From Eledone cirrhosa (Eukaryota), in assembly GCA_964016885.1 (NCBI GenBank), contig OZ024740.1, positions 28,954,001 to 29,018,000 on the forward strand: a stretch of 64,000 nucleotides of DNA, read 5' to 3'. The notes beneath the pieces were generated by a model, which saw only the letters and a program-made list of their open reading frames with translations, searched no databases and was not told where the DNA came from. Of the stretch, positions 11,088-59,129 are shown piece after piece (position 1 is the first letter of the stretch; each line of letters opens with the position of its first letter). A program made the translations under genes and the position numbers.

Positions 11088-11295
11088 ACAAGGGAGCACC
11101 CTCTCTCTGTGCTCCTGAGGAGAAGAGTTGCACACTTTTTCGGGGGTGCGACCCCCCAAAACGCCTCCTCCCTATTGAGGACTTTATTGTTAATTTTATA
11201 TTTGTTATTGTTTTTTTTTACTCGTTCTTTTGTGTAAACTCCCCCCTTTGTATTTGTCCCCTTCTTTTGCGCCCTCGTGGCAATAAATAGAAACA
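11088..11295 (+). mobile_element. Tx1-type LINE 3'UTR-only fragment ending in (TA)n
   Basis: Matches the 3'UTR of the 36.9-37.1 kb and 52.2-52.5 kb copies (GGGAGCACCC..CTCTGTGCTCCTGAGGAGA); ends CCCTCGTGGCAATAAATAGAAA. Confidence 0.8.
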
Positions 11296-11582
11296 TATAT
11301 ATATATATATATGTGTGTGTGTGTATGTGTGTGTGTCTGTGTGTGTGTGTGTAGGTGTGTGTGTGTCTGCGTGTGTGTATGTATGTGTGTGAGGGGGTGG
11401 AGTGTATGTGTGTGAGGGGGGTGTATGTATGTGAGGGGGGTGAGGGTGTAATGACAAATCTACATAACAATTATTCTCTTCATCTCTTTCTGTCTTTATT
11501 TTATTTCTCTCGATTTTTTTCTAAATTCTTCGACGCCATTCGCTTTATTTTTTCAATTATTTCCTATCCTGTGTGTTTACGT

Positions 11583-22100: not shown

Positions 22101-22189
22101 TCCTCTCAACAACCATTGTCTTGATAAAAACTTAATTTACGAATGTAAAGTTATAACTGACACCAATTCCTTCACCTATTTTGGCTCCG

Positions 22190-24189
22190 CCTTCACCACT
22201 GCCAAGGTCCAGAACCACTAGTCGACCCTCTGGGTTCAAATGTACCATCTGTGTTGCGAGACCCAGATGTTTTTGCAGCAGAATGACAACCCCACCCCCA
22301 CCTCCGGGCTGACAGAGAGATGCGTGCATCTCAAAGTCATCAAAGGTGGGGGCCAGCTGTCGCACGTTTCTGATCCGAGCCTCGCAAATAACCATCACAT
22401 CTATACGTTGTGACCTGAGGTCATTTAGAAGCATTGCTTGCTTCCAAGTTGAGCCCAGGCCACGCGCATTTAAACAGCCTACTCTTAGCATGGCCATGTT
22501 GGTGGTGAAGAGAAAAGGCACTTACCTCTCTGCGTCCCGGGTATCGGGCTGCACAATTTCCATTAGGGTGGGGGATGGGTTGTTGGGTGGGGTGGTGGTT
22601 TGTGGAGGTATAGGGGCATCAGTGTGTTGTGTGGTTGGGGAGTTTAGAGTTGTGTGGGTGTTTGGGGAAGGGGTGGGGTAGTTTTTTAGGAGGACGCGGT
22701 TAATGGGCCCGACGCAGGGGGGACCCACGTCCTCTTTAAAGTTGTTTTTTAAAGTTTTATAGGTGTCCTGTGGAGCCTTAATCATTTTGAGGTGGGGGAA
22801 ATCCCCTGCCTGGGTGAAGTTAGGCCCTTGGGTTTTTATTAGATTGTTGTTGTACACAATGTTTAACAGTTTTTTGTTTCTTGTTTATGTATGTGTATGC
22901 ATGTTTTTGTTTTTGTGTGGTGTTTTTTGTTTGCTGTTGTTGTGAGCTCTTTTGTGTTGGTGTCAGTGTTATGTTTTGGGGAGGGGTTGTTTTCATTTGT
23001 ATGTCTGAGGTGTGTTTTCTTTTTTTTCTTTTGATTGTGTGGAAGTGCTCCTCCTCGTCTGACGACGAACTAGGGTCATCTTCCGCGTTGGAGGGGAGGG
23101 GTATATTTTCGGGTTGTGTTTGCGGTGCGGGTGTTTTGGAAATTGTTTTTGTTTTTTGAGTGGGGGGGGGGATGGGTTGGACATTGTTTTGTTTTGGTTT
23201 GATCTGGTGGTTGTTTTTGTAGTGGTAGTTGTGGTGATTGTGTTGGCTGTGCAGTTGTTGGTGGTGTAGGCAGGATTGGGGTTTTCTTATTGATTTGGGG
23301 ACAGACAGCCCTCAGGTGACCTCTGGTTCCGCAGAGGTAACACGAGGGCCGCCTACCCTCAACGGTAATGTTGATGAAAATTTGATCATCCAGTATGACG
23401 CGTTCAGGGATCTGGGCGATCCTTTCGGGCGTCATTTGAACTACAAGTTCGAGGCTCGTTCCACTGAACGCGTCACCCGATGCCTTTCCCATGGACACCA
23501 GCGTGTCATCATCCAGGTTCAGGAAACCTGTCAAAACCCACCATATGTCCATAATCGGCAGGATGGTGTGGATTTTTATTTTTTGTGTTCTTCTACCCAT
23601 GTACGTAGGGTAAAAGATGTATGCGGTGGATGTGATTGGTTTGATGGACAGTTTCACTGCTGTGTCTCTGTCCTTCATGAGAATGGATAGACTCCCGTAG
23701 AGTCTATCCTTCTGAATGAAGGTGATGTCCTTCATGACGTCTTTTAAAACCAGCTCTATCTCCCTCTGTGATGGTTGAGCTGGTTTTTTGCTTTTATTCG
23801 AGATTGTCCTAAACATGACAGTGTTTAGGAGTCTCTGGCTTTTTAGTTCCGGGGGGGGGGGGGGATGGATCGTGAATGAACCATTTTCCCCGTACACTAT
23901 ATATTTTTTGGCATCTGCCAGTAGCTCCTTCGCTTTGGTTATATCTACTGGCAGATAGTCGAGGGTTTTCCTTGCCGTCTCGGCGAAGGAGAAATTTTGT
24001 TTGTTTGTGTTGCTGTTGTAGTTGGTGGTGTTGTTGTTATCATTGTTGTTGTTATTACAGTTATTGGTCTTGTTGTTGTTGTTATTGTTATTGGTGTTGT
24101 TTTCGTCCGTCGCCTTGTTGTTATTGTTGCTGTTGCTGGTGCCGCTGGTTCTTTGGTTTGTTGCCATGGCAGCGTCAAGTTGTTGGTCA
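22190..24189 (-). mobile_element. Tx1/L1-clade LINE 5' part: ORF1 (24167 to 22522, frameshifted) and start of ORF2 APE
   Basis: Zinc knuckle CYLCGTRGHLRAVC; ORF2 MAMLRVGCLNARGL..ICEAR..GGGGVVIL, cut off by the PLE at 22190. Confidence 0.9.
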
Positions 24190-24351
24190 TAGATAAATAT
24201 ACACGGGTGTGTATGATTGTGTATAGAAGATTATATTAATAAGAGGAATTCCAACTTTGTCTGATTTACTCGTTTTATTTACAATCCTTTAACATTTATA
24301 ATGGTATTATAATGAAATAGTATGATAGAATATTAAATTCTAAGTGTTAAT

Positions 24352-24390
24352 TGAACAAGTACTTTCATGCTTTCGCAATCTTCAGGTTCA
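24352..24390 (-). ncRNA. Minimal hammerhead ribozyme
   Basis: Minus strand TGAAC-CTGAAGA-TTGCGAAAGCAT-GAAA-GTAC-TT-GTTCA. Confidence 0.85.
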
Positions 24391-24728
24391 TAATATGTGG
24401 TGACAGTCAAGTTTGCAATTTTCAACTGTAATAAGATGGGTAATTTTTCTACCTTTTATACATTTTATACAGGGAAAAGTGGCTCCAGAATCCTAAGTCT
24501 TGCAAACTGTATTTCGACCAATCAGTGTGTAGTTTCACTGAATTACTAAAACTGATTGGTTTAAGCGTCACGGCTGGTTGATCATGTCTAACGATCAATA
24601 ATTAATCATATCCAAAGCATCAATTGTTTTGCTATTTTTAGAAATGATGAAAATAGCATTTTCTATTAATCATCACCATCAACCTCACTTTTATTATTAT
24701 TATTATTGTTGTTGTTGTTGTTGTTGTT

Positions 24729-24776
<48 letters not shown>

Positions 24777-24832
24777 ATTGTTGTTAGTGGTCGTAGTCAT
24801 AGTGATAGTAGAAGTAATACCCCTAAGCGTTA

Positions 24833-25477
24833 TTATTGTTCATTTAGCTTGGGTTTGAATTTATCAATAAAATTCTTTTCTTTGATTTTTCTCTTGATTT
24901 CACTTGGGCTGTGTAATTTGTAGAATGGGAATATTATAAATATTCCCTGACTACATGTTGCTAGATGGTTACTTAGGGGTATCTGACGGACATTTGGGTC
25001 TCTGATTTGTTGACGGTGTACCCGTGCACGTTCCGATAGTGCATTTCCAGTTTGACCGACATAGAGTTCTTCACAATTCGGGCATTTAATGCAGTAAATT
25101 AGATTTCTGCTTTTGCAGTTCATATTTGCATTTGGGAATATTTTTCCAGTTTTTGTTTTCATATATTGACCGGCGTGTATGGATTGACATGTGCCGCATC
25201 GACTATCATTGCATTTAGATACAGTGAATGATTGGTCTTTGTTGTTATGGTCAAACTTTGCTTTTGTTAGTAATTGCTTCAAATTTTTTGGCTGTCTTTT
25301 ACTAAGAGTCAAAGATCGATCTGTGATTAAGCCTTTTAATTCATTACTTTGAGCAATAATCGGTAGGTTTGCTTTGGCAGTGTTGAAGATATTCTGGTGA
25401 CATGGGTTGTGTGTCATTATAAATGGTATGACCAGTTCTTGGTTTCTTCTTCCTTGTGTTGTCCTAAGTTGTTGCAT
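24833..25477 (-). pseudogene. PLE GIY-YIG endonuclease C-terminal fragment
   Basis: KRQPKNLKQLL, Cx4CxxC linker (CNDSRCGTC), NLIYCIKC..C..LYVGQTG, R..H, EK.FI..F.P.LN. Confidence 0.9.
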
Positions 25478-25592
25478 GGGTATTTTTATAGCCCACTGTA
25501 TGCCATTTTATTGATAAATTCAAACCCAAGCTAAATGAACAATAATAACGCTTAGGGGTATTACTTCTACTATCACTATGACTACGACCACT

Positions 25593-25655
<63 letters not shown>

Positions 25656-25969
25656 AATAATAATAATAAAAGTGAGGTTGATGGTGATGATTAATAGAAA
25701 ATGCTATTTTCATCATTTCTAAAAATAGCAAAACAATTGATGCTTTGGATATGATAAATTATTGGTCGTTAGACATGATCAACCAGCTATGACGCTTAAA
25801 CCAATCAGCTTTAGTAATTCAGTGAAACTACACACTGATTGGTCGAAATACAGTTTGCAAGACTTAGGATTCTGGAGCCACTTTTCCCTGTATAAAATGT
25901 ATAAAAGGTAGAAAATTTACCCATCTTATTACAGTTGAAAATTGCAAACTTGACTGTCACCACATATTA

Positions 25970-26008
25970 TGAACCTGAAGATTGCGAAAGCATGAAAGTA
26001 CTTGTTCA
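25970..26008 (+). ncRNA. Minimal hammerhead ribozyme (inverted pLTR copy)
   Basis: TGAAC-CTGAAGA-TTGCGAAAGCAT-GAAA-GTAC-TT-GTTCA; palindromic stem III. Confidence 0.85.
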
Positions 26009-26124
26009 ATTAACACTTAGAATTTAATATTCTATCATACTATTTCATTATAATACCATTATAAATGTTAAAGGATCGTAAATAAAACGAGTAAATCAGA
26101 CAAAGTTGGAATTCCTCTTATTAA

Positions 26125-26155
<31 letters not shown>

Positions 26156-26217
26156 CTATATATAACGAATAAGGAAAAGCGAAGTAGTTTCAGATGTTCA
26201 AGTCCTTTAATAATAAT

Positions 26218-36823: not shown

Positions 36824-36890
<67 letters not shown>

Positions 36891-36892
<2 letters not shown>

Positions 36893-37467
36893 CTTTCTTT
36901 TTATTTGCCACCAGGGCATCAAAAGTGGGACAAGTACAAAGGGGGGACTTTACATGCAAAGGCGTCCTCAATATGGAGGGGGCAATAACAGGATATAAAA
37001 GTATAAAAATAAAATAAAATATAACAAAATAAATTTTGTAACAAAATCCTCAATAGGGAGGAGGCGCCTTGGGGGGTCGCACACACCCCCGAAAAAAGTG
37101 TTGAACCCTTCTCCTCAGGAGCACAGAGAGGGGGTGCTCCCTTGGTCTTTCATCTTCCTCACCTATAGTTTGATGTAGAGTGAAGGCCCATTCACACGGG
37201 CCATTCTCGCCACTTTCACCCATCTTTCATAAAAACGGCTGGGGTGCAGCACCTCTCTCTCCATCCTGATCCTTCTTCCGAAATGATATCGGAAGAAACG
37301 GACCAGTTGTTGGCCAGAGAGAAAGGTGTCTGACCTCAGTCCTTTCAGACGCGTCCACCATACAACCTCTTTCTCCATGGTTATTACGCACAGAAACACT
37401 GCCTCTCCTTCGTTTTTGAAGAGGGGAGGCGGCTTGATCGTTACAATAGACTCGGTGGTCAACCGGA
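36891..37467 (-). mobile_element. 5'-truncated Tx1 LINE 3' end with (TATC)n tail
   Basis: ORF2 C-terminus ..WWTRLKGL..FYERWVKVARMARVNGPSLYIKL; near-identical to 52208-52783. Confidence 0.92.
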
Positions 37468-37469
37468 GA

Positions 37470-37885
37470 TAGATAAATATACACGGGTGTGTCTGATTGT
37501 GTATAGAAGATTATATTAATAAGAGGAATTCCAACTTTGTCTGATTTACTCGTTTTATTTACAATCCTTTAAAATCTATAATGATATTATAATGAAATAG
37601 TATGCTAGAATATTAAATGTTAAGTGTTAATTGAACAAGCAGTTTCATGCTTTCGCAATCTTCAGGTTCATAATGTGTGGTGACAGTCAAATTTGCAATT
37701 TTCAACTATTGAAAATTGCAAATATTATGCAAACATTATGAACCTGAAGATTGCGAAAGCATGAAAGTACTTGTTAACATTTAATATTCTAGCATACTAT
37801 TTCTTTATAATACCATTATAAATTTTAAAGAATTGTAAATAAAACGAGTAAATCAGACAAAGTTGGAATTCCTCTTATTAATATA
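37470..37885. mobile_element. Fold-back mini-element of the Neptune-like pLTR with two inverted HHRs (37632-37670 minus, mutated; 37739-37775 plus)
   Basis: Matches 24190-24428 followed by its inverted copy. Confidence 0.88.
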
Positions 37886-37950
37886 GATATATATATATAT
37901 ATAATTTTTTATCTGTATTATTATTTACTTTTACTATATTTATCTTTCCT

Positions 37951-38322: not shown

Positions 38323-38332
38323 GAATGCTATG

Positions 38333-38662
38333 CTCTCTTCCCGGCATTTTGTTGAAAGATGGGTGAGAGAAGCAAGTATGGCCCGAATGAATGGGCCTTC
38401 TCTGAGTATGTGTCTGTAAATTAAAGGTGGAAAACTGGGAGAGGGCACTTGCCCTGGTGGTCAGGGCCACTGTGGTCTTTTAATGGGCTTTCTCCACAAA
38501 TGTCCCTTGGAAGTCTCCCCCCTATTGGGGAATTTTTCTTTGTTATTTTATTTCAACCTCTGTTTTTTTTACACGCAGAAATGCCCATTTGTACCGTCCT
38601 GTATTGTCCTGTACTGTCCTTAATGTCTACTTTATGTGAACCCTTGTGGTTAATAAAGAAAA

Positions 38663-38663
<1 letters not shown>
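38333..38663 (+). mobile_element. Tx1 3'-end fragment with (TTA)n tail
   Basis: Homologous to 44304-44630; flanked on both sides by (TTA)nTTGAATGCTATG. Confidence 0.9.
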
Positions 38664-38717
<54 letters not shown>

Positions 38718-38920
38718 GAATGCTATGGTTTACGGAGGCTCGGCTCTGTAAGGTATTGTAAATTTTGACCGCTATAACAATTGTAAATTGTTTAAAACTT
38801 TAACCAACTTGTAGACAAAAACACCCTCCTCCTCTTTCTGCCCGTTATTTGGCCCTTCGGGGTTAAATAACTGCTTATTGGGGTTTTGTGCCCAATATTT
38901 ATTTTAAACAAAAAAACAAC

Positions 38921-40984
38921 ATGGCTACGAAAAAGAATTTTCATAGGTCACTCCCACTCATTCCGTCTTCTTCTTCCTCAATCGTCACTACAGCAGAGAG
39001 AAGATTGTCTCTCTCCCTCCCTTCTCTTTCGCAAGCGACGACAGAAAAGAAAAGTCTCGTGCAAAGCGTGCAAGATTTCTCCACGACGACGACGACAACG
39101 ACGAAACAGGTGTGCGGGAAATACGAAAACCCATTTCATTCGTCTGACGTGAGGAATAATAGCAGTAGCAGCCGTAATAACAGCAGCAACAGTGACAATG
39201 AAAACAACAGTAGCAGCCGCAACAGCATCAGCAGCAGCATAAACAACAACAGCATTAGCAGCAGCAACAACAACAACAACCACAGCAACAGCGGCGGCGG
39301 CAGTAGTCGTAGTACCTGCAGCAACAACAAAAGTAACAGCAGCTCTGACGACAACAACAACCACAACAGCAGCAAAGAAAAACCAATCTCGTTTGCAGGT
39401 ATCGCGAAGAACCTGGAAACAATCCACATAACAAATGAGGAATTAGAAGAAACGAAGAAGATGGTGACAAAAACTCGACACCGAGCAATCTGCAAGGCAG
39501 CGGAAAATTTTTTCGAAACCCAACAGCACTGTATGGTCACGTACCGTACAGTAAGTACAAAATCCCGTAGGGTTGAAAGAGCCACAGAGGCTCAAATACA
39601 AAAAGCATTGGGGTCTGTGTGGCAGCGGAAAACGCACATCACCCGAGGCAAGAAATATGCCACCGTAGACGTACTTTTTGCCACACCCCAGGAGGAAAAC
39701 GCTCAAACCTTAGTGACCCTAAGGAGCGAGGAAATGGTGTTGGTGCCCTCCTACTGCGGACAAAAAATTGTGAGGGTCAAACTGACCCACGTCCCCCCAA
39801 GCCGCGTCTGTTCTCGTCGGAATCGAGGACAAAACAACTGTACTGCAAGTGCAGAAAAAAGTAAGAGAAGATTGGGTCGGCACCTCCATTGAGATGTTAA
39901 TCCAAACCAACCAGGAGTGCATCGAAGCTATCCCGGATGTGATAGGCTTCGATAACGGCACTCAACTGCCCATAAGTGTTGAGGGCAAACGCCCGAAATG
40001 CTTTCGCTGTGGATAGAAGACTCACCTCAGGGCCTTCTGCAACGAGAAGACCCTGAGAAAGGAGAAAACCCCCCTCCTTCCGAAACCGGCTTCACGGCTA
40101 CCAGCAACAGGACAAGCGGCAACCAGGAACGATAGGTCCGTGGCACCCATACCCACGCCACGGAAATCAAAAACAGCAGCAGCAGTGGAAGTATTAACAA
40201 CGACAACAGCAATACCAAATGCAGCTGCAACAGAGACTCCAGTGCAAACATCACCAACAACAACAAATGAAAGAGTGGAGCCTTACCCCTCCCCGACCTC
40301 ACAGAATCAGACATGGAGTGTGAGGTGGGAGAGGGATGGCAAAAGGTCGTAAGAAGGCACAAACGCAGAAGCAGCGCATCGTCGCCTTTGAAAAGGGAGG
40401 AAAGAAATGAAAAAAGGGTAAAGTCTACTGCAAAGAGACTCACAGCAGCAACACCACCAAGACCATCACCACCCACACTAGCACCACCATCACCACCGGC
40501 GACAACCCCACCGCCAACAACAACAACACCTTCAACACCACCACCACAAGCACCAACATCGCAAACACAACAACAAAACACACACACCCAGCAAAAACGA
40601 CAAGAAAATAGCAGAACCACACCTCACCCCCAGAAAGTCAAATGCACAGCAATAAATACACACAACAAGAAACTAATGACTTACATAATTGAACACACAG
40701 ACATTTCACAACACGACTACATAATACCAGCACCAATCAAAACGCCAACTAACATAAGACTGCTAAAAATAGCACAGAAACAATACACAAACATTAAAAC
40801 GAAATTCCCCAACGCAGTTGGTGATTTCAGAGACCTAGGAGGAACTATCAACCCAAGAGTATATTCGGACATACTCATAGAAGAGCCGACGACCAGCCGA
40901 AGGGACGATTCAACGGTCACTTCACCAGACGATCAAGTGAAAAGGGATGTAAAAACCATCCCTCCTCTACGAAAAGTACGGTAA
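38921..40984 (+). pseudogene. Tx1 ORF1 (disrupted)
   Basis: MATKK start, SFA.IA, V.YRTVS, zinc knuckle remnant EGKRPKCFRCG near 39980; homologous to ORF1 at 23-24 kb and 57-59 kb. Confidence 0.85.
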
Positions 40985-41017
40985 GTGGTCTTTCCATCTT
41001 TTCCACTCTATTTTAAA

Positions 41018-44000
41018 CATGACCTCACCCAGAATAGGCAGCATAAATGCGCGTGGCTTGGGGTCGTCATGGAAGCAGGGTCACCTGCTCAACGACCTCA
41101 GGTAACTAAACATAGATGTAGTGGACATCAGCGAGACCAGAATCTCCGAAGCACGGCCTTCGCACCGATCTTCGGCGGCTACGATGTGTACGCATCTCCC
41201 AGCCGTCCTGGATCGGAGGGAGGAGTTGCTGTGGTTTTTCGGAGAGGTTTGGATCTCGCCATACGGGCCATCTTCCTGGACCCAGAGGGTAAGTTGGTGG
41301 TGCTGGACGTGACCGGCGGAGATGGGAAAGCTTTCAGGCTAGTGGCCGTCTATACCCCGACAGGAGCAGGGCGGCCTGATTTCTTCCGGCGTCTGGAGAC
41401 CTTTATTGGAACGTCCCGCTCTTTAGTGTTAATGGGCGACTGGAACGGGATCTTAGATGCACGCTGGGACTGTGTGGGATTAGAGGATAGGGGTGGAGGG
41501 TGCAAGAGCCTCACCAACCTGCTCAGGCGTTTTGAACTGTCTGACAGGTACCGATTGGATTTCCCGAATGTGCCAATGTGGACTTGGACAAATCGCATAG
41601 GGTCATCCAGATCATATCTAGATAGAGTATTTTGTAGGGAAATAGATAGGTCTAGCATAGGCTGTCCACAATTCAAGATAGTCAGCTACACGGACCACAA
41701 ATTCGTGATCTGTGTGCTTGACTTAGATAGGCTTCATAGACGAGGACCCGGTTACTGGAAGCTAAACGCGTCCTTACCAGCGCGCAAGGCCTACAGAGAC
41801 CGGATTAGCGAACTAGTTAAGCGGGCGTTGACGGGGGCCATCGTCAACAACAAGTGGTGGTTTGCTCTGAAAAGAGCCATTAGAATAGAATCCATTAGGT
41901 TTAGTAAGGCTTTAGCAATAGAGAAAAATAGAGCAGGGGGAGAACTAGTTAGAAAATTAGACGAGGCGCTTAGCAAAGGCATTGCGACCGACGTGCTTGC
42001 GGCGAAATTGGCCCTTGACCAATTCTTGAATGCAAAGCACGAAGGCTGCGTTGTCAGAGCAAGGGTGCGTGCTCTCAGACACGAGGGGACGAAAACCGTT
42101 CAATGGGCCCGAGTGGCGGAGGCGCGTCGTGGGAACAAAGCCACGATCCGGTCTTTGGTGGACCACGACGGGCGCATGCTACTCGATCCCGGGCAAATGT
42201 GTGAAGCTTTTCAGCGACACTTCGCTCAGCTGTTCGGGGGCAGCGGTGGGCCGGGTCGAGGGATGGACTTTAGTGTCTACCTCGAAGGACTGCCGCGGCT
42301 CTCGGCCACTGAGGCGAAGTGTTGCGAAAGGCCGATAACAGCCGCTGAAGTAAGGGAGGAAATGACTGGCTGCACAAGTGGGAAATCGCCTGGTTTGGTT
42401 GGTCTGCCCTATGAACTTTACGTACAGATGCCAGACTTGTTCGGAGGCCTCTTGGCGGACGTCTACTGTAACTGGCAACAGAACGGGAGAAATCCCAGTT
42501 CTGTGAGCCGAGGAGCGGTGGCACTGCTGAGAAAGGATCCGAACAAGGGTGATAACATAGATAATTTCCGGCCCATAACACTGCTAAACACAGAGTTCAA
42601 GATTTTGGCCAAGGTGCTAGCAAAGATGTTGGCGCTTGTCGTTGGTGGTCTGGTGGGAGAGGCACAGACATGCGCCATTCCCGACAGATCCATCCACGAC
42701 AACCTCCACCTCATGCGATACATCGTAGAGAGGGTAGCTACGGAACCTGGCACGGGTGGGGCCTTGATCAATTTAGATCAGTCGAAAGCTTTCGATAGGG
42801 TCGACCATCGTTACCTAGCGGCAGTCCTGAGGGCGGCTGGCTTTGGGCCCGTCTTCAGGGGCTGGATCGCTGCCATGCACATCGACATCTGCTCTGTGGT
42901 GAGAGTGAACGGTCACCTGTCGGAACCGTTCAGCATCATGCGCTCAGTCCGCCAAGGAAGTCCGCTCTCGTCCCTCTTGTACGTATTGACTCTCGAGCCA
43001 TTAGTGCACAAACTGGAGACGTTGAGGGGCATCCCGCGCGAACTAGGATGCGGAAGATCCGTGTCAGCATATGCGGACGATGTCACCGTAGTGGTGTCGA
43101 ACGCCAAACTCATCGAGGCGATCGGCACTACACTAAGAGAATACGAAGCGGTGACAGGAGCAATGATCAACCAGGAAAAGTCAGTGGGCCTGCAGCTCGG
43201 CACCTGGAGAGGCAGGTCCATGCCGTCCAACAGCGTCGTCGGACGCTGGACCGACGGACCGGCTAAATTGCTAGGGGTCTGGTTCGGTCCGGACCTCCAG
43301 ACGGACAAAAACTGGGACGAGGTGACGAGCAGGTTGGCTTCTCTCACCCAGAAATGGGCGGAGAGGAAGCTATCCCTGAAAGGTCGAGCGTACATCGCGT
43401 CTGTCATCTGCTACCGCCTGACCGTCGTACCTTGTCCTAAGCCTCGCCTGACTGCGCTGGAGCGTTTGCTCTTTCGCTTTTTGTAGAAGGGACGCGCTCC
43501 GATGGTCAGGTGGTCTATCTGTTGTCAACACCCGCTACGTGGAGGGCTGGGCATGCCGTGGCTGATGATGCGCAGGCACGCGCTCAGGCTACGACCTCTC
43601 CACCTCTTCCTCGACGGTAATCACGTGTGGTCACCGTTTGCTAGACACGTATTTCCCCAGCTCGTTTCCTTGACGGAGCTGCAGTCCTGGGTCAAGCGAA
43701 GACCGAGAAGGAGCGCCTGGAGACTGGAATGTCTTCAGGCGCTCACAGCCCTCGACCAATCGGGCAATGTGATCGGTGGAAACTCCACCTCGGCGTTCTA
43801 TAGAGGATTAGTGGAGGGGAAGAGCGACGACGTACTTGGGGAAACTCTAGGCGTCGACGAAAATCAACTAGCCAATCTCTTCGGAAGAACTTTCGGGCCA
43901 GGGCCTATGGACAACTTCCAGAAATCTCTGGCCTGGCAGAGCTACTGAGGAGCCTTACCAGTTCGGGATAAACTCTACAGGCATGGAGGTGCCGTCAGCC

Positions 44001-44384
44001 GGGCATGCCCGAGATGCGCGCAGGGCGACGACAATTGCTGACTTGTGGGTTTATGTCGAACACCTGCTGTCGCGTTTAGGACGGATCCGGCTATCATCTG
44101 AGTCCATCGTGAGGATTGCCCCGCCCTCCTCCTTTAGCCGGGAAGTGCAGGCAGTTTTTATCTGTCTGGTGGCCATGGCGAAAGAGATAGTATGGTGGAC
44201 ACGTCTGAAAGGGCTGAAGACGAGCACTTACATCTTCGGTGATGCTCTGATTGACTTTTTCAAATTTCATTTGAAAAGGAAAATCAGAGTAGAGAGGGAA
44301 GTGCTCTCTTCCCAGCATTTTGTTGAAAGATGGGTGAGAGAAGCAAGAATGGCCCGAGTGAATGGGCCTACTCTGAGTATATAA
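41018..44384 (+). pseudogene. Tx1 ORF2: APE endonuclease plus reverse transcriptase, several stops/frameshifts
   Basis: GDWN, SYLDR, TDHK, GPGYWKLN, KSPG..GLPYE, NFRPITLLN, LDQSKAFDRV, SVRQG, YADD. Confidence 0.95.
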
Positions 44385-44659
44385 CTGTAAATTAAAGGTG
44401 GAAAACTGGGAGAGGGCACTTGCCTTGGTGGTCAGGGTCATTGTGGCCTTTTACTGGGCTTTCTCCACAAATGTCCCTCCGAAGATTGGGAAATTTTTCA
44501 TTGTTATTTTTTGTTACATCCTCTGTTTTTTGTTTTTTACACGCAGAAATGCCCATTTGTACCGTCCTGTATTGTCCTGCACTGTCCTTAATGTCTACTT
44601 TATGTAAACCCTTGTGGTTAATAAAGAAATCATTATTATTATTATTATTATTATTTTTA

Positions 44660-45350
44660 TTATTCTTTGAGTCTCAGTCATTGATGTTATTTAACTGGAA
44701 AGTTTGTTGAAATGTATATAAAGCCGCTACCTGCAGCCTCAGATATTCAGGACGTATCGGAGGGTTCTTGCTGTTCCCAGCAAGCATGCCTTTTGAAGTG
44801 TTCCAAAAAGCGGGGCGGGACCAATTTTCTTTAACCATCCTTGGAAACTCTCTGAGATAGTCCCTAGTACACCTATGACAATCGGGACCACTTTGACTTT
44901 ATGGCAGTTCCAAATCCTTTTTACCTCCCACTTTAAGTCCTGGTATCGGTTAATTTTCTCCCTCTCCTTCTCTTGCACTATCGTATCGAATGGGCAGGCC
45001 ACATCCACAATCAGACACGATCTTTTTTCCTTGTCCAAAATCACAATGTCAGGTCTATTGTGTTCCAGTTTCTTGGCCGTCTGTATCCTAAAATCCTACA
45101 GCACCTTCACCTGTTCGTTTTCTATCACCGACTCTGGCTTATGCCCATACCACTTCTCAGAATGTGGTAAATTGTTTACTTTGCATAGATGCCAGTGGAT
45201 CACCCTGCCCATCACATCATGTCTCCAGCCTTTATAGTGAGTCTGGGCTAGGTGATTACACGCGGATACAATGTGAGCCACAGTCTCCTCTCTCTATCCA
45301 CAGATCCTGCACAGTAGGCTAGCCTCCTCCTTGTAAATATGGTGTTTTAA
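44660..45350 (-). mobile_element. R4/Dong-like RLE non-LTR retrotransposon, truncated copy 1, (TAA)n tail
   Basis: CCHC (C..C..ETVAHIVSAC), RHD, NRPDI..DK..IVDVACP.D..EK..RYQDL. Confidence 0.88.
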
Positions 45351-45377
45351 ATATTATTATTATTATTATTATTTTTA

Positions 45378-46318
45378 TTGTTCTTTGAGTCTCAGTCATT
45401 GATGTTAGTTAACTGGAAAGTTTGTTGAAATGAATATCAAGCCACTATCTGCAGCCTCAGACATTCAGGACGTATCGGAGTGTCCTTGCTATTCCCAGCA
45501 AGCATGTCTTTTGAAGTGTTCCAAAAAGCGGGGCGGGGCCAATTTTCTTTAACCCTCCCTGGAAACTTTTTGAGATAGTACCTAGTGCACCTCTGACAAT
45601 CGGGACCACTTTGACTTCATGGCAGTTCCAAATCCTTTTTACCTCCCACTTTAAGTCCTGGTATCGGTTAATTTTCTCCCTCTCCTTCTCTTGCACTATC
45701 GTATCGAATGGGCAGGCCACATCCACAATCAGGCACGATCTTTTTTCCTTGTCCAAAACCACCAGGTCAGGTCTATTGTGTTCCAGTTTCTTGTCCGTCT
45801 GTATCCTAAAATCCCATAGCAACTTCACCTGATAGTTTTCTATCACCGACACTGGCTTATGCTCATACCACTTCTCAGAATGTGGTAAATTGTTTACTTT
45901 GCATAGGTGCCAGTGGATCACCTTGCCCATCACATCATGTCTCCAGCCTTTATAGTGAGTCTGGGCTAGGTGTTTACACTCGGATACAATGTGAGCCACA
46001 GTCTCCTCTCTCTCTCCACAGATCCTGCACAGTGGGATAGCCTCCTCTTTGTAAATATGGTGTTTCAGCCACTTCGTTTTGAGGGCCTGCTCTTGCGCAG
46101 CCAATATCATTCCTTCTGTAGCCTTTTTAAGGTCTCCTCTTCTCAACCAGTTCCATGTCTGTGGATCTCTGAATTCCGTTTTCTCAAAGAAGGTAATATG
46201 AAGGGATTTTTCATGAAGGTTGCTCTTTCTCCTTGTTGTTATTTCCTCCTTGGACATCCCCTGGTCTATTGTCCTCTCCTTCAGTACAATTCTGAGCATT
46301 GGCTCCTTACTATGATCT
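45378..46318 (-). mobile_element. R4/Dong-like RLE retrotransposon, truncated copy 2, (TAA)n tail
   Basis: ORF 45457-46326: AAQEQAL, CRICGEREETVAHIVSEC, RHD, LWDF.IQTD, NRPDLVV. Confidence 0.9.
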
Positions 46319-51944: not shown

Positions 51945-52032
51945 TGTATGTATGTATGTATATATATATGTATATATATACATGTATGTAACTACGTATA
52001 TATGTATATATATACGTATAGCTAGATAGATA

Positions 52033-52188
52033 AATTTCTTTACTAGCCACAAGGGCACAAAAGAAGGGGACAAATGCAAATGGGGAGTTTACATACAGGT
52101 ATATGAAAATAAAACTTTTAATACAATAACAAATAACAATTGAAATCCCCAATAGGGGGGGGGTATACAGGGGTTGTACACACCCCGA
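52033..52188 (-). mobile_element. Tx1 3'UTR fragment
   Basis: TTTCTTTACTAGCCACAAGGGC..AATCCCCAATAGGGGG homologous to 53249-53380; GATA units on both sides. Confidence 0.8.
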
Positions 52189-52207
52189 CTAGATAGATAG
52201 ATAGATA

Positions 52208-53216
52208 ACTTTCTTTTTATTTGCCACTAGGGCATCAAAAGTGGGACAAGTACAAAGGGGGGACTTTACATGCAAAGGCGTCCTCAATATGGAGGGGGCA
52301 ATAACAAGATATAAAAGTATAAAAATAAAATAAAATATAACAAAATAAATTTTATAACAAAATCCTCAATAGGGAGGAGGCACCTTGGGGGGTCGCACAC
52401 AACCCCGAAAAAAAGTGTGCAACCCATCTCCTCAGGAGCACAGAGAGGGGGTGCTCCCTTGGTCTTTCATCTTCCTCACCTATAGTCTGATGTAGAGTGA
52501 AGGCCCATTCACACGGGCCATTCTCGCCACTTTCACCCATCTTTCATAAAAACGGCTGGGGTGCAGCACCTCTCTCTCCATCCTGATCCTTCTTCCGAAA
52601 TGATATCGGAAGAAACGGACCAGTTGTTGGCCAGAGAGAAAGGTGTCTGACCTCAGTCCTTTCAGACGCGTCCACCATACAACCTCTTTCTCCATGGCTA
52701 TTACGCACAGAAATACCGCCTCTCCTTCGTTTTTGAAGAGAGGAGGCGGCTTGATCGTTACAATAGACTCGGTGGTCAACCGGATCGGTCCCACCCTTGA
52801 CAGCAGTTGTTCGACATAACCCCACAGATCTGCAATGCCCGAGCAGTGTACCAAAGCCTGTGCAACGGTTTCCTCGTCTCACGCATCTGGGACAGATCTT
52901 TTTCGAGGAGTCCCTACCCGGGCGCCCGTGTCTGTAGAGACTTTCTCGAACGGGCAGAGCCCCTCGGTAGCAGTGCCAGGCCAGGGACCTCTGGAAGTTA
53001 TCCATGGGTCCCGGGCTGAATGTCCTACCGAACAGGTTGTCCAGTTCGTCTTCCTCCATGCCTAGGGCTTCTTCGAGGGTGTCGTCGCACCTGCTAACCA
53101 CCAGCCCTCTATAGAATGACGAGGTGGATTCTCCACTGACAGCCGGGTCCGCCTACCAGAGAGCCTTGAGCGCCTGGGCACACTCGGTGTACCAGGCGCT
53201 CAGTTTTCTCGGTCTT
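52208..53216 (-). mobile_element. 5'-truncated Tx1 LINE between (GATA)n tracts
   Basis: PGPMDNFQRSLAW.CYRGALPV, CPRC, ORF2 C-terminus and 3'UTR. Confidence 0.92.
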
Positions 53217-53249
<33 letters not shown>

Positions 53250-53482
53250 TTCTTTATTAGCCACAAGGGCGCAACAAGAAAGGGGACAATACAAAGACAT
53301 GCCGGGGATTTTACATACAGTCGTGTAAAAAATATAAAAACAAACAATTTCAACAATCGAAATCCCCAATAGGGGGGAGGCGCCACAAATGGGTTGTTTA
53401 ATACCCCGTCGATAGAACAACCCTCAACTCGAGGAGCGTGTTGTGCAAGTGCTCATTTCTTCCTTTTGCTCTCTTCCTCAAC

Positions 53483-56400
53483 CTACAGGCTTATAAACAG
53501 AGAAGGCCCAATCACTCGGGCCATTTTCGCTTCATTCACCCACCTTTCAGTAAATTTACTGGGGTGCAGTGCCTCTCTCTCCACCCTGATTCTCCTTCTA
53601 AAGTGATACTTAAAGAAGGGAATCAATTGTTGTCCGGAGAGAAAGGCATCTGTCCTCAGTCCTCTCAACCTCGTCCACCATATAACTTCTTTCACCATAG
53701 CCACCGTACAGAGGAAAACCGCCTCTCTTTCGTTTTTGAAAGAGTCTGGATGTTTGATCCTTACTATGGACTCGGCAGTCAACTGTATTTGTCCCATACG
53801 CGACAGCAGTTGTTCTGCATAGTTCCACAGGTCGCTTACGCCCGGGCAGTGTACAATTGCGTGTAGAACTGTTTCAATGTCCTGCGCACATCTTGGACAC
53901 GTCCTCTTGGAAGGATCCCTGCCAGGGCGTCCGTGCCTGTAGATCTTGTCACGAACCGGTAGAGCTCCTCGGTAGCACTGCCAGGCCAGGGACCTCTGGA
54001 AGTTGTCCATAGGTCCCGGGCGGAAAGTCCTACCAAACATACTGGTGAGCTCATCGTCTTCGACGCCCAGAGTCTCTCCGAGCACGTCGTCGCCCTTGTA
54101 ACGTACAATCCCTCTATAGAATGTCGAAGTGGAGTCTCCACTGATTGCTGCGCCCGCTTGCCAGAGGACTGTGAGCACCTGAGCGCATTCAATGTGCCAG
54201 GCGCCCATCGTTTTCGGTCTTTTCTTCACCCAGGACTGCAGCTCCGTTAGCGAGACGAGCTGTGGGAAAGCCTGTCTCACAAACGGTGCCCACACCGGTT
54301 GGGGGTCGGTGAGGAATACCTGGAGATGCCGCAGCCTCAGCGCATGTTTGCGCATCATCAGCCACGGCATTCCCAGCCCTCCGTTGGAAGGGTGCTGACA
54401 GCAGACGGATCTCCTCACCAGCGGAGCCTGCTTCTTCCACAGAAACTGGAAGAGCATGCGTTCCATCTTGGCGAGGTGTTCACGGGGACAAGGCACGACA
54501 GTCAAGCGGTAGTAGATGACGGACGCTATGAAAGTGTTCGCCACCTTCGCTCGACCTTTCAAGGACAGTTTGCATTCTGCCCACTTCTGAGTGAGTGCAA
54601 ACACCTTGGCCGTGACCTCGTTCCAGTTTTTCTCCACCCGGAGGTCTGGACCGAACCAGACCCCGAGCAATTTCACCGGTCCGTCCGTTCAGCGTCCAAC
54701 GACGCTGTCGGATGTCATCGGTTTGCCTCTCCACGTACCGAGTTGCAAACCGACAGACTTGTCTGGGTTTAGTTTTGCTCCCGTCAGCGTTTCGTATTCA
54801 TTCAGTATGTTGCCGATCACCCCGATTTCCGAGGTGCTCGACACCATTACTGTCACGTCGTCGGCATAAGCCGACGCCGCTTTGCGCAGTCCCGGTTCTA
54901 GGGGGATGCCCTGCAACAGCTCCAATTTCCGCAGTAGTGGCTCTAGAGTCAATACATACAGAATGGAGGAGAGAGGGCATCCCTGTCGAATGGAACGCGT
55001 GATTGCGAACGGCTCCGATAGGTAGCCGTTCACCTTGACCCTCGAGCAGATGCTGGTGTGCATCGCCTCGATCCATCCTCTGAACACGGGACCGAAACCG
55101 GCCGCCTTGAGAACCGCTTCCAAGTATCGATGGTCGACCCTATCGAATGCCTTAGACTAATCCAAGTTGATCAGAGCCCCACCGAAGCCGGGTTTACTAC
55201 CCACCCTCTCTATGATGTATCGCATGAGGTGGAGGTTGTCGTGTATGGACCTGGTCGGGATTGCACACGTTTGCGCTTTCCCTACCAGGTTCTCGACGAC
55301 AAGCGCCAACCTCGTCGCTAGCACCTTGGCCAAAATCTGTAACTCTGTGTTGAGCAGAGTTATGGGCCTGAAGTTGTTAATTTCGTCCCCCTTGTTCTCG
55401 TCTTTCCTGATCAGCGTTACTACGCCCTTGCCTGCAGAACTGGGAATTCTCCCGTTCTGCTGCCAATTGCAGTAGACGGCTTCGAGGACGCCAGAGAACA
55501 AGTCCGACATGCCTATGTAAAATTCGTAGGGTAGACCATCTAGACCGGGTGACTTGCGTTTCCCGCAGCGGCCCAGAGCGTCCCGTATCTCAGTGTCGGT
55601 GATCGGTCTTTCGCAGAACTCGGCGTCCGTGTTCGAGAGACGCGGCAGGCCGTCGAGGTATGAACTAAAGTCCATTGCCCCGTTCGGCTCACCGTCGTTC
55701 TGCTCAAACAGTCGCGCAAAGTGCCGCTGAAAGGCCGCGCACATTTGCTTGGGGTCAAGTAGCACGCGTCCGTTTTGGTCTTTCAAAGACCGAATCGTGG
55801 ACTTGTTGCCACTTTTTGCCTCCGCCACTCGGGCCCAGCTGACAGCTTTCGCTCCTTCGTTTCCTAGAGCACGTGTTTTGCTTCTGACCACGCAGCCTTC
55901 GTGTTTCGCATCGAAGAACTGGTCCAGTGCCGTTCTCGACGCTAACACGCTAGCCGCGTTGCCACTTCTAAGTGCCGCCTCTACCTTGGCTACTAGTTCT
56001 CTTTCTATTCTGTTTTTCTCTAAGGCTAACTCTCTGCTATACCCTATCGATTCTATTCTAATTGCTTTCTTGAGAGAGTACCACCATCTATTCTTGACGA
56101 TGGCTCCCGTTAACTGTTGCTTGACTAGTTTACTTATCCGTTCACTGTAAGCTTTACGTGCCGGCAACGACACGTTCAGCTTCCAGTATCCGGGACCCTG
56201 TCTATGTATTCTATCACGGTTGACTAAGCAGACGACTCACTTGTGATCTGAATAGGCAACCATGTGCATTCGTGGACAGCTTAACATATCCTTGTCCCTT
56301 TCTCTAATGAAGAACCTATCTAAATACGATCTAGATGTCCCACTGCGGTTTACCCACGTCCACTGTGGTGCAGTCGGGAAATCCAGTCGATACCTATCGG

Positions 56401-56929
56401 CCAGTTGGAATTGGCCGATTAAAGTTTTGAGGCTGTTGCACCCCGCTCTACTGGGACATGCTCCCACATAGTCCCATCGTGCATCTAGGATACCATTCCA
56501 GTCCCCCACTAAAAGTAAGGAGCGAGACGTTCCCAGAAAAGACTCTAGACGCTTAAAGAAGTCTGGCCGTGATTGCGATTGCCCGGTCGGGGCATAAACG
56601 GCCACCAGTCTGAAGGCTCCACCTCCGATACTGTTCACGTCTAGGACTACCAGTCTACCCTCCGGGTCCAAGTGTACTTGCTGTACTCCGACGTCCAGGT
56701 TCTTCCGAAACATAACAGCCACTCCACCTCCACCTCCTGGCTGACAGAGAGATGCGTAGATCTCAAAGTCGTCGAAGATGGGGGTTAGTTGCTGCCTGTT
56801 GTGGATTCTGGACTCGGTGATGGCTATCACATCCATACTGTGTGACCTAAGGTCGTTTAAAAGTTGGCCCTGTTTCCAGGGCATCCCTAGGCCACGCACA
56901 TTCACGGTTCCACCTCGTAAACCAGCCAT
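53483..56929 (-). pseudogene. Tx1 ORF2 (APE-RT-zinc finger), single frame with three nonsense codons
   Basis: NVRGL, GDWN, SDH, KSPGLDG, FRPITLLN, RQGCPLS, YADD, CPRC..ETVLHAIVHC; stops at 56237, 55157 and 54689. Confidence 0.95.
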
Positions 56930-56970
56930 GTTGGTGAAGAAAAGTTGGAGAAAAAGGACGAAAGGTGCAC

Positions 56971-58849
56971 TTACCTTTTCGTTTCCTGGAGATCGGGTTG
57001 TTCAATCTCCATTTGGGTGCTGGATGGGGTGTTGGGTGGGGTGGGGAAACATTTTAATAGGACGCGGTTGATGGGTTTGTGGCAGGGGTTGCCCACGTCC
57101 TGTGAAAATTGAATTTTCAGGTCTTTATAGGTTTCCATAGAAACCCTTATAAGTTTAAGGTGTGGAGACGATTCTGCCTTGACGAAAGTTTTGCCCTCCG
57201 TCTCCACCTTGGGGTTTTGGGAGATGACCTCCATCAAACTCTTGTTGTTTGTGTTGATGTATGCGTATTGTTGTTTGTGTTTTTGTTGTATTGTTTTAGT
57301 TTGTTGTTCATCCGGGAGTTTTCTTTTTATGGTGGGTGCTTGTGTTTGGGGTGGTGTTGGCGCTGGTTTTGCTGATAGGGAGATGTTTGACTGTGGTGTT
57401 GTTTGTGTTGTTGTTTGTGTCTGTGGTTGTGTGTTGGTGTTGGTGATTGGAGTTTTGGGGGTTTTGTGGTGTCTCTTTTTTTGTTTTTTGGATTTCCGCG
57501 GTTCTTCCTCTTCTTCACTTAAAGAAGGAGAAGCAGCTTCATCCGTCGATGAATAATCATCGTCAGGTGTGTGGGGTAAGGGTATGTTGTGTGGTGGTGG
57601 TGGTGTTTCGGTATGTGTGTTTGTGGTAGTGTTTGATGGAGTGGGATGGAGTGGGGATGTGTTCTTCAGAGGTGTTGTCTCTGTTTTTTTCTGTTGTTGT
57701 TGGTTGAGTTTCTGTTTGTTTAGGTGTGGTTGCTCGTTTCGTCTGTCGTTGTACTTGTGGTGGTGGTGGTGGTTGTTTTGGTGTTGGTGTTGGTAATAGC
57801 GTTTTTTTTATGATGTTGCTGTTGTGTGTTTGTGGACAAGAGGCTTTTAGGTGAGATGTGCTACCACAGCGAAAGCAGTGAAATTTTCTTCCTTCTACCG
57901 AAATGTTTATTTTGTTGTTATTATCAATAACGACTCTTTCGGGTATTTTGGAGATTCTCTCCGGTTTCATTTGCAACAGAATCTCCAAATCGGTGCCCGC
58001 CCACCTTTGTCGAATGGATTTTCGTATCGAAAGTATTATGTCTGTTTCTGGCTCTACGAAGCCAGCCAAGATCCACCAGATGTTAATGCTTGGAGGTATG
58101 TTTTTTATTTTTATTTTTTGTGTCCTTTTCCCCATGTATGTAGGGAAAAAGGTGTATGCTTTTGACACTATTGGTGTCACAGAGTTTTTTGGGGCCAGTG
58201 CCTCGCTTTTAAACAGTACGGAAACACTTCCGTACTGTTTTCCTCGCTGGAGAAAATCGACATTTCCTAGAATTTCCTTGAAAGAATCTTCTATATCTGA
58301 CTGATTAACAAATGTCGGTTTTCTTGATGAATTTGACACAGTCCTAAAAGTGACTGATCGGCGGTTTGTGTCTTCCTTTATTTCAAGGGGTGAGTTAATT
58401 CTAAACCCACCTCTTTCTTCGAAAGTTACAAATTTTCTCCCTTGCTGGAGCATATCTCTTGCGTTGGAGATATCAAGATTTATAAAATCTTGTTTCTTGT
58501 TGACTGTGTCAGCAAAAGACATTTTCTTTTTTTGTGTGATGTTGTTGTTAATAATGATGTTATCGTTGTTGGAAATTTTATGTGTAGATGTATCTGTAGA
58601 GTTGTTGATGTCTTTTTCATGTGTATGTATGTCAATGGGTTTTTTTGCCGTGTTTTCCCGTGTGTTATTGTCATTTTTCTCCGCTTCGGCGGTAGAAATT
58701 GTAACATTTTCAAATGTTGATATATTTTTTTCTTTTGTGACAGTATCTATGGCAACGTCCATAGCAGCAGAAGCAGATATAACGTTAATATCTGCCTCTT
58801 TCTCTCTCTTTTCTCTATTAACGTTCTCCAGCGTTCTAGTGTTGCTCAA
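56971..58849 (-). pseudogene. Tx1 ORF1 with CCHC knuckle, at least one frameshift
   Basis: SFAD, VTFRTVS, PTYMGKRTQKIKI, CFRCGSTSHLKASC. Confidence 0.88.
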
Positions 58850-59058
58850 GTTTTTTTACTTTGTAAAATTTGATATTTTAAAACAAACTTTTAAATAAAA
58901 TTTTCGCCCCTACAGGGGCGAAAAATGGGATTACCAATCAGCTGACAATTCAGCTTGGGGGTTAATCTACAAAGTGTTGTATTTTTTTCAAACAATTAGA
59001 TCGGTTTTTTGCATAGAAATTAACAAAAAACTTACCGGCGATATTCCACACGTTAGAC

Positions 59059-59129
<71 letters not shown>

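Follow-up and report, generated by a model that had tools for sequence, protein, structure and literature searches.

Human L1 proteins bind the RNA that encoded them, and human L1 5'UTRs stay mostly unspliced despite a conserved 5' splice site, or donor (PMC5860796). Spliced copies (SpIREs, about 2%) lose promoter sequence and are dead ends; the splice sites in human L1 are read as a cost (PMC5860796). A different arrangement is found in Penelope of Drosophila virilis and in Chlamys-3_cRei, where a short 5'UTR intron is retained in inserted copies; in Penelope this intron is 75 bp long and overlaps the internal promoter (PMC8557442). Such retention through reverse transcription in Penelope-like elements is described there as highly unusual and of unknown significance (PMC8557442). 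Among Tx1 elements, the families Kibi, Koshi and those of crocodilians target microsatellites: (TC)n, (TTC)n, and (TTCC)n or (TTTC)n, respectively (PMC4494074).

A literature search that covered listings of papers and the papers cited here found no description of a 5'UTR intron or a conserved donor in Tx1 elements. A repeat annotation of Octopus vulgaris (2026) lists 13 L1-Tx1 families in one table, and the strings "intron" and "splic" are absent from its main text (PMC13282606); "splic" likewise does not occur in PMC7140322.

The window, the 64,000-nucleotide stretch of DNA analysed here, is repeat-rich animal DNA, and the closest named relatives of its LINE proteins come from Argonauta and Octopus, which makes an octopod the likely host. 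It holds two L1/Tx1-type LINEs, one on the minus strand (53249..59063) with (TCTA)n on both sides, the other on the plus strand (38719..44631) with (ATT)n on both sides. The initial annotation described both as full-length copies, which is right for their extent and not for their reading frames. In the minus copy, ORF1 (57563..58849), with its CCHC knuckle, has a frame change, and ORF2 (53483..56929), encoding AP endonuclease, reverse transcriptase and zinc finger, has three in-frame stops; in the plus copy (ORF1 start and first frame at 38921..39892) stops and frame changes interrupt both ORFs. Pfam finds Exo_endo_phos, RVT_1 and zf-RVT, a C-terminal zinc finger, in ORF2, whose best solved relative is human L1 ORF2p (E 2e-99; R2 reaches only 1e-34). 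The zinc knuckle CX2CX4HX4C is present in the ORF1 sequence; the Pfam zf-CCHC match is weak in the window ORF1 (E 0.049) and above cut-off in two homologues. Between the two copies, ORF2 is 67% identical over 929 amino acids, with 166 of 319 four-fold sites identical, and the ORF1 cores are 26% identical. The label Tx1 is our presumption from the initial annotation and the architecture; the trees contained unnamed relatives only.

These are two-ORF APE-type LINEs flanked by microsatellites, as are the Kibi, Koshi and crocodilian families, but the repeats here are (TCTA)n and (ATT)n, and leader introns go unmentioned in the accessible text on those Tx1 families (PMC4494074). The same microsatellite borders each full copy on both sides, and the 3' ends of other copies, at a few loci, enter such repeats. 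Identity as Penelope-like elements, which would bring GIY-YIG, a single ORF and a pseudo-LTR, was considered and rejected: both copies have an AP endonuclease and two ORFs, and the GIY-YIG domain at 24833-25477 belongs to a different element.

Several neighbours deserve mention in their own right. Tx1-like 3' ends from several families are stacked in microsatellites at 52020-53486 (minus strand), 36880-37168, 38331-38686 and 11150-11310; they share a CCC-TATT-GGGG-like stem and CCCTTGTGG before AATAAA, and about 10 nt of this 3' stem are missing from the full plus copy. On the minus strand, the stretches 22135-24188 and 24189-26161 show a third Tx1-like element, with an ORF1 core 44% identical to that of the minus copy, whose leader has given way, from about 21 nt upstream of the ATG, to the Penelope-like element that carries the GIY-YIG domain. 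A related end lies at 37469-37918, beside another Tx1 piece. A 714-bp non-LTR fragment, likely of R4/Dong type, and its tandem duplicate (94%) lie at 44634-46065, inside the plus copy's (ATT)n tail and in the opposite orientation.

All motifs that the initial annotation had placed in the two leaders are indeed there. In the minus copy, a putative 28-nt exon 1 (59036..59063) ends at the 5' splice-site motif CCG/GTAAGT (59030..59038; slashes mark the boundary), whose donor G, at 59035, lies 28 nt from the 5' end (~59063); the motif matches 8 of 9 positions of the consensus. This donor opens a putative 69-nt GT-AG intron (58967..59035) with a branch-like A, within CTAAT, at 58996, 29 nt before the acceptor G (58967). 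In the plus copy, the putative GT-AG intron (38748..38814) is 67 nt long. Its donor, GTAAGG at 38748, aligns with that of the minus copy and lies 29 nt from the 5' end (~38719), giving a putative exon 1 of 29 nt; this donor is weak (5 of 9 matches) and predicted to pair with exon 1. With the alternative donor AAG/GTATTG at 38753, and the acceptor TTGTAG/A at 38814, the segment would be 62 nt. Both acceptors are TAG. The pyrimidine tract is weak in both copies, and no branch site is shared between them, CTAAT being present in the minus copy only.

These sites stand out against their surroundings. GTAAG occurs 71 times in the window, counting both strands, and is followed 60-75 nt downstream by YYNYAG in 3 cases, 2 of which are these leader sites, under a rule chosen after the sites had been seen. 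In shuffled UTRs, donor and acceptor both fall within 5 nt of these places at rates of 0.00035 and 0.0001.

The initial annotation regarded the two 5'UTRs as dissimilar in sequence, and on this point it was mistaken: they are colinear and nearly gapless homologues, with 121 of 198 aligned columns identical (61%), an alignment score equalled by 1 of 2000 shuffles and, for the first 100 nt, by none of 2000. The shared design is therefore inherited, the two copies are not independent witnesses, and the correct null is descent. Identity is concentrated at the donor (5/5), the acceptor (7/8) and the region of the shared hairpin (22/31), as compared with the flanking segments (14/28 for exon 1, then 15/27, 18/30, 11/36 and 29/52) and with the four-fold sites of ORF2 given above. 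When neutral descent was simulated at 52-70% identity, donor and acceptor were kept in 0.7-5.8% of runs, and donor, acceptor and hairpin together in 0.001-0.24%. Descent alone thus gives a p of 0.007-0.06 for donor plus acceptor in these related copies. That the motifs arose by chance in AT-rich leaders and are shared by descent only is very improbable; the overall likeness of the leaders would suit such a history, as would that of the 3'UTRs (145 of 211 identical), but joint retention with the hairpin at no more than 0.24% argues against it. The intron interior also retains blocks between the two copies, e.g., AATTGTTT. Searched with a profile built from both UTRs, neither the window nor 80 metagenome loci yielded a third copy.

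Downstream of the acceptor each leader forms a hairpin: in the minus copy at 58899..58926, with a 10-bp core at 58901-58924 (z -3.9; 1 of 200 shuffles as good), and in the plus copy at 38844..38871, with 12 bp and a C-UUCG-G loop (z -4.2; 0 of 200). The two are one homologous stem in register. Comparison of its 12 pairs, plus against minus, finds 6 constant, 4 changed on both sides and 1 on a single side; the remaining pair is broken in the minus copy. The covariation check proposed with the initial annotation thus came out in part: 4 of 12 pairs show two-sided change, as against none in slid controls, but with two rows the shuffle test is not significant (33 of 500). Placed ahead of ORF1, this shared hairpin likely works at the RNA level, either in translation or in the binding of ORF1p. 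A second hairpin in the minus copy, which the initial annotation had not marked, starts at the acceptor G (58930..58967) and is without counterpart in the plus copy. Its predicted stability is -13.2 kcal/mol with the letters of the window copy and -19.6 kcal/mol with those of other contigs at 58937 and 58938, positions at which nearly all contigs differ from the window copy.

The start of ORF1 in the minus copy is a separate matter. The counterpart of the plus-copy ATG in the alignment is a TTG at 58849, with an ATG in the same frame at 58762, and no change of this TTG to ATG appears among the 40 variant rows listed in the comparison described next; a non-AUG start and an extended leader are candidate readings. 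A 12-bp hairpin lies immediately 5' of the minus-strand ATG at 58762.

Other copies of the minus family were sought in contigs from four of the five listed sequencing runs (506, 515, 33 and 3 contigs), compared with 58300-59075 only, so that the comparison bears on the minus copy. CCG/GTAAGC, together with two or three changes in exon 1, is found in 9 contigs of run X3 and 1 of run X4 (loose ends at 59030). Ten contigs of run X3 stop matching at 58973, just within the acceptor end of the segment, whose interior is variable among family copies at 58974-59000. Loose ends in runs X1 and X4 keep TTTGTAG with changed flanks, and one loose-end consensus in run X3 has TGTAA at the acceptor. No change falls on GT, AG or the shared hairpin among the 40 variant rows listed, with a further 56 rows and 122 loose ends outside that listing. 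No intron-less joint across the segment was seen in the contigs of the four runs; contigs show presence rather than absence, and with an exon 1 of only 28 nt rare intron-less copies would still be compatible with this result.

More distant relatives come from a scan of genome contigs, which gave 52 loci; a single record, labelled a bacterial metagenome-assembled genome (MAG), accounts for 42 (L081-L122). That record (G001) holds 17 contigs of LINE arrays with 71 endonuclease matches and ORF2 mostly open. In these loci two-ORF LINEs ending in AATAAA are arrayed head to tail, an organization that points to host DNA in the bin; L081-L122 are thus likely animal DNA within a bacterial MAG bin. This sister clade is 45-46% identical to the window elements in ORF2, and its ORF1 is homologous (22-25%; E 4e-8 to 1e-13). 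From 54 anchors, one too short, 49 distinct places were obtained, of which 3 precede 5'-truncated copies, leaving 46 full leaders. Exactly one sense GTAAG is present in 44 of these 46; the other two, both copies of the L119 family, have none. A caveat is that shuffling alone yields a GTAAG in 7-34% of leaders. The 44 copies amount to two or three lineages, since all come from one record, have ORF2 91-99% identical and may be tandem-duplicated. Strongly different leaders on such similar ORF2 sequences suggest, from the sequences compared, that 5' modules may have been swapped.

The leaders fall into two groups. Group B (13 copies, 6 types) has the donor G/GTAAGA or A/GTAAGA, which opens a U-rich segment of 175-197 nt ending in YAG/G in all 13 (12 CAG, 1 TAG); there is a tract with 9-12 pyrimidines in 13, in leaders that are U-rich throughout. 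An exact 13-nt complement of the donor lies 47-65 nt downstream in 9 of 13, the donor is predicted to be fully paired in 5 of 6 types, and, like the minus family, these leaders have a predicted stem starting at the acceptor; the acceptor G, being part of that stem, could be conserved without splicing. Group A (31 copies) has an invariant AAA/GTAAGT, lying in 26 of 31 about 33-38 nt from a 5' end inferred from the truncated-copy junctions of one type, compared with 28-29 nt in the window copies. Before a C-rich/G-rich hairpin, which shows no two-sided change in 5 sequences, 4 of 31 have TAG (64 nt), 16 only AAG (66 nt) and 11 no AG; the last have a YAG further downstream. The intron-like design is therefore shared more widely than the initial annotation could say, extending to other copies of the minus family and to a clade at 45% ORF2 identity. 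Of the donor/acceptor spacing that it expected other full-length copies to conserve, the donor is the constant part; 27 of the 31 copies in group A have no fixed acceptor. The feature is real, its conservation reaches beyond the window, and its recurrence in a similar place at this distance further weighs against chance.

Two further features of the sister clade are noted. A hairpin over the ORF2 stop is followed by GTRAGT (L085:3026-3056 and equivalents). In 15 of 16 types the TRA follows the reading frame of ORF2, which it terminates in 2, and the motif was for that reason set aside as support; in L119 the TRA is out of frame, and CAG/GTAAGT is nevertheless present. This may be a second U1 site. 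A short stem also directly precedes the ORF1 ATG and takes in its A (L085:4021-4041 and equivalents), where the variants TAGCTG/CAGCTA, TGGCTG/CAGCCA and TGGTTG/CAACTA, read by eye, keep the pairing.

Beyond the sister clade no enrichment is seen. An ORF1 word search gave no match; scans of loci with ORF1 found none in genome or viral contigs, and those with a piece of the minus ORF2 found none in either. The 80 metagenome loci are distant, and in the tree none groups with the window elements. In 28 of these distant loci with an ORF1 candidate, intron-like pairs upstream of ORF1 number 2 sense and 3 antisense, both sense matches being unconvincing on inspection; in 16 with at least 150 nt upstream, GTAAG is found in 5 sense and 5 antisense, a frequency that speaks for chance occurrence in those leaders. 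Without enrichment in distant L1-like loci, the feature belongs to this lineage rather than to LINEs at large.

What does the GTAAG do? The 67-69-nt segments have GT-AG ends with a near-consensus donor, like those of a U2-type intron, and the group B segments also run from GT to AG. The letters around GTAAG vary by lineage (CCG, TCT, AAA, TCG or TAA before; T, G, C or A after). On sequence evidence, GTAAG likely opens an intron. The reading that we prefer, to which we give even odds, is that the leader carries a conserved U1-type 5' splice site opening a weak, mostly retained intron, the full-length RNA serving as both message and template. U1 would bind the cap-proximal GTAAG, and splicing would be inefficient, lowered where predicted stems cover the donor (group B, plus copy) or start at the acceptor (group B, minus family). 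The cap-proximal donor may benefit transcription or protect the transcript from early polyadenylation. A spliced copy, once inserted, would lose leader sequence that probably holds the internal promoter and would become a dead end, as in human L1.

The strongest competitor, which we nonetheless regard as unlikely, is that the conserved blocks belong, as DNA motifs, to an internal promoter, their likeness to splice sites a by-product. Retention of AATTGTTT in the interior fits such motifs, and in the sister clade the interior repeats TTGTT, which we take to resemble SOX-type sites. The unfixed acceptor of group A and the lack of any intron-less copy would also be expected, and a precedent exists in human L1, whose donor lies in a RUNX3 site (PMC5860796). 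But the letters flanking GTAAG differ among lineages within the tolerance of a splice site, and in group B the YAG in 13 of 13 copies and the 13-nt complement of the donor in 9 of 13 are easier to read at the level of RNA. Nor does a promoter exclude an intron, as Penelope illustrates (PMC8557442). The weak intron remains our preferred reading.

A constant donor with a variable acceptor could also mean that the site binds U1 and is never spliced, guarding an A-rich transcript from early polyadenylation or controlling the poly(A) site of the preceding copy in head-to-tail arrays. Foamy virus suppresses polyadenylation through U1 at a donor, with RNA structure gating access (PMC3694450), and both the sister elements and the plus copy lie directly behind the AATAAA of another copy, the latter behind the 3' end of another family member (38331-38663). 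We hold this to be distinctly improbable, since both group B and the window families conserve the acceptor, and the minus copy has no element directly in front.

The initial annotation went further, assigning the role of template to unspliced RNA and that of message to spliced RNA. That conclusion does not follow from retention of the intron, which the cis preference and dead-end spliced copies seen in human L1 would also explain. A model with efficient splicing for translation and a separate pool of unspliced template has attractions: in the minus leader splicing would remove an 8-codon upstream ORF; the segment is retained in all copies examined, as the intron is in Penelope (PMC8557442); and for the LTR element BARE, distinct pools of RNA have been reported (PMC3735527). 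Yet L1 proteins act in cis and spliced L1 RNA inserts (PMC5860796), so that intron-less copies would be expected, and among the 44 sister copies there are none. The search for copies lacking the intron that the initial annotation had called for likewise found none in the contigs of the four runs, in the sister leaders or in 133 sequences, where 0 of 101 possible spliced junctions were present; in BLAST of two leaders against the sister genome, none of the matches listed (26 and 40, with 40 of 64 and 40 of 70 candidates scored) was a deleted form. Moreover, both ORFs lie wholly downstream of the segment, so that unspliced RNA would be translatable, and upstream ATGs would persist in the plus leader after splicing. 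A division of labour between two RNAs is thus unlikely, and this model merits about as little credence as a U1 site that is never spliced.

Other roles for the leader were tried and rejected. For a 5' ribozyme (HDV-like or hammerhead), neither the window nor 5 sister loci gave any Rfam match, and a strongly folded ribozyme-like 5' end is not in evidence, the first 96-97 nt folding like shuffles (z -0.03 and -0.66). Escape from HUSH is a poor purpose for so short a segment: a small artificial intron was unprotective, and protection rose with intron length (PMC8770142).

Comparison with the described systems now gains in detail. Like human L1, these are L1-type LINEs with a conserved 5'UTR donor, and in human L1, where the RNA is mostly unspliced, masking of the donor by structure has been proposed (PMC5860796). 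The human donor, at about +98 within the RUNX3 site, uses distant and changing acceptors (PMC5860796), whereas in the window a near-consensus donor at about +29 opens a compact segment of 67-69 nt, and the arrangement recurs at 45% ORF2 identity. Of the systems considered, the layout is closest to that of Penelope, with a short, intron-like 5'UTR segment retained in inserted copies. The parallel drawn in the initial annotation is borne out by the 75-bp 5'UTR intron of that element (PMC8557442). Unlike Penelope-like elements, which have GIY-YIG, pseudo-LTRs and demonstrated splicing, the window elements are two-ORF LINEs of APE-RT type that carry a poly(A) signal, and their intron is putative. 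A bolder version, in which a widespread Tx1/L1 lineage keeps a true structure-gated 5'UTR intron through retrotransposition, regulated splicing setting the shares of message and template as a Penelope-like trait in a cis-acting LINE, strikes us as unlikely, slightly more so than the promoter explanation.

The leaders are 200-470 nt long, and natural variants exist that have or lack a fixed acceptor or a stem masking the donor, so that the proposal is testable with small reporters. If it is true, a LINE lineage has preserved a donor near the cap over a deep evolutionary split, along with an entire short intron in some of its branches, which would imply purposeful use of the host U1 or spliceosome.
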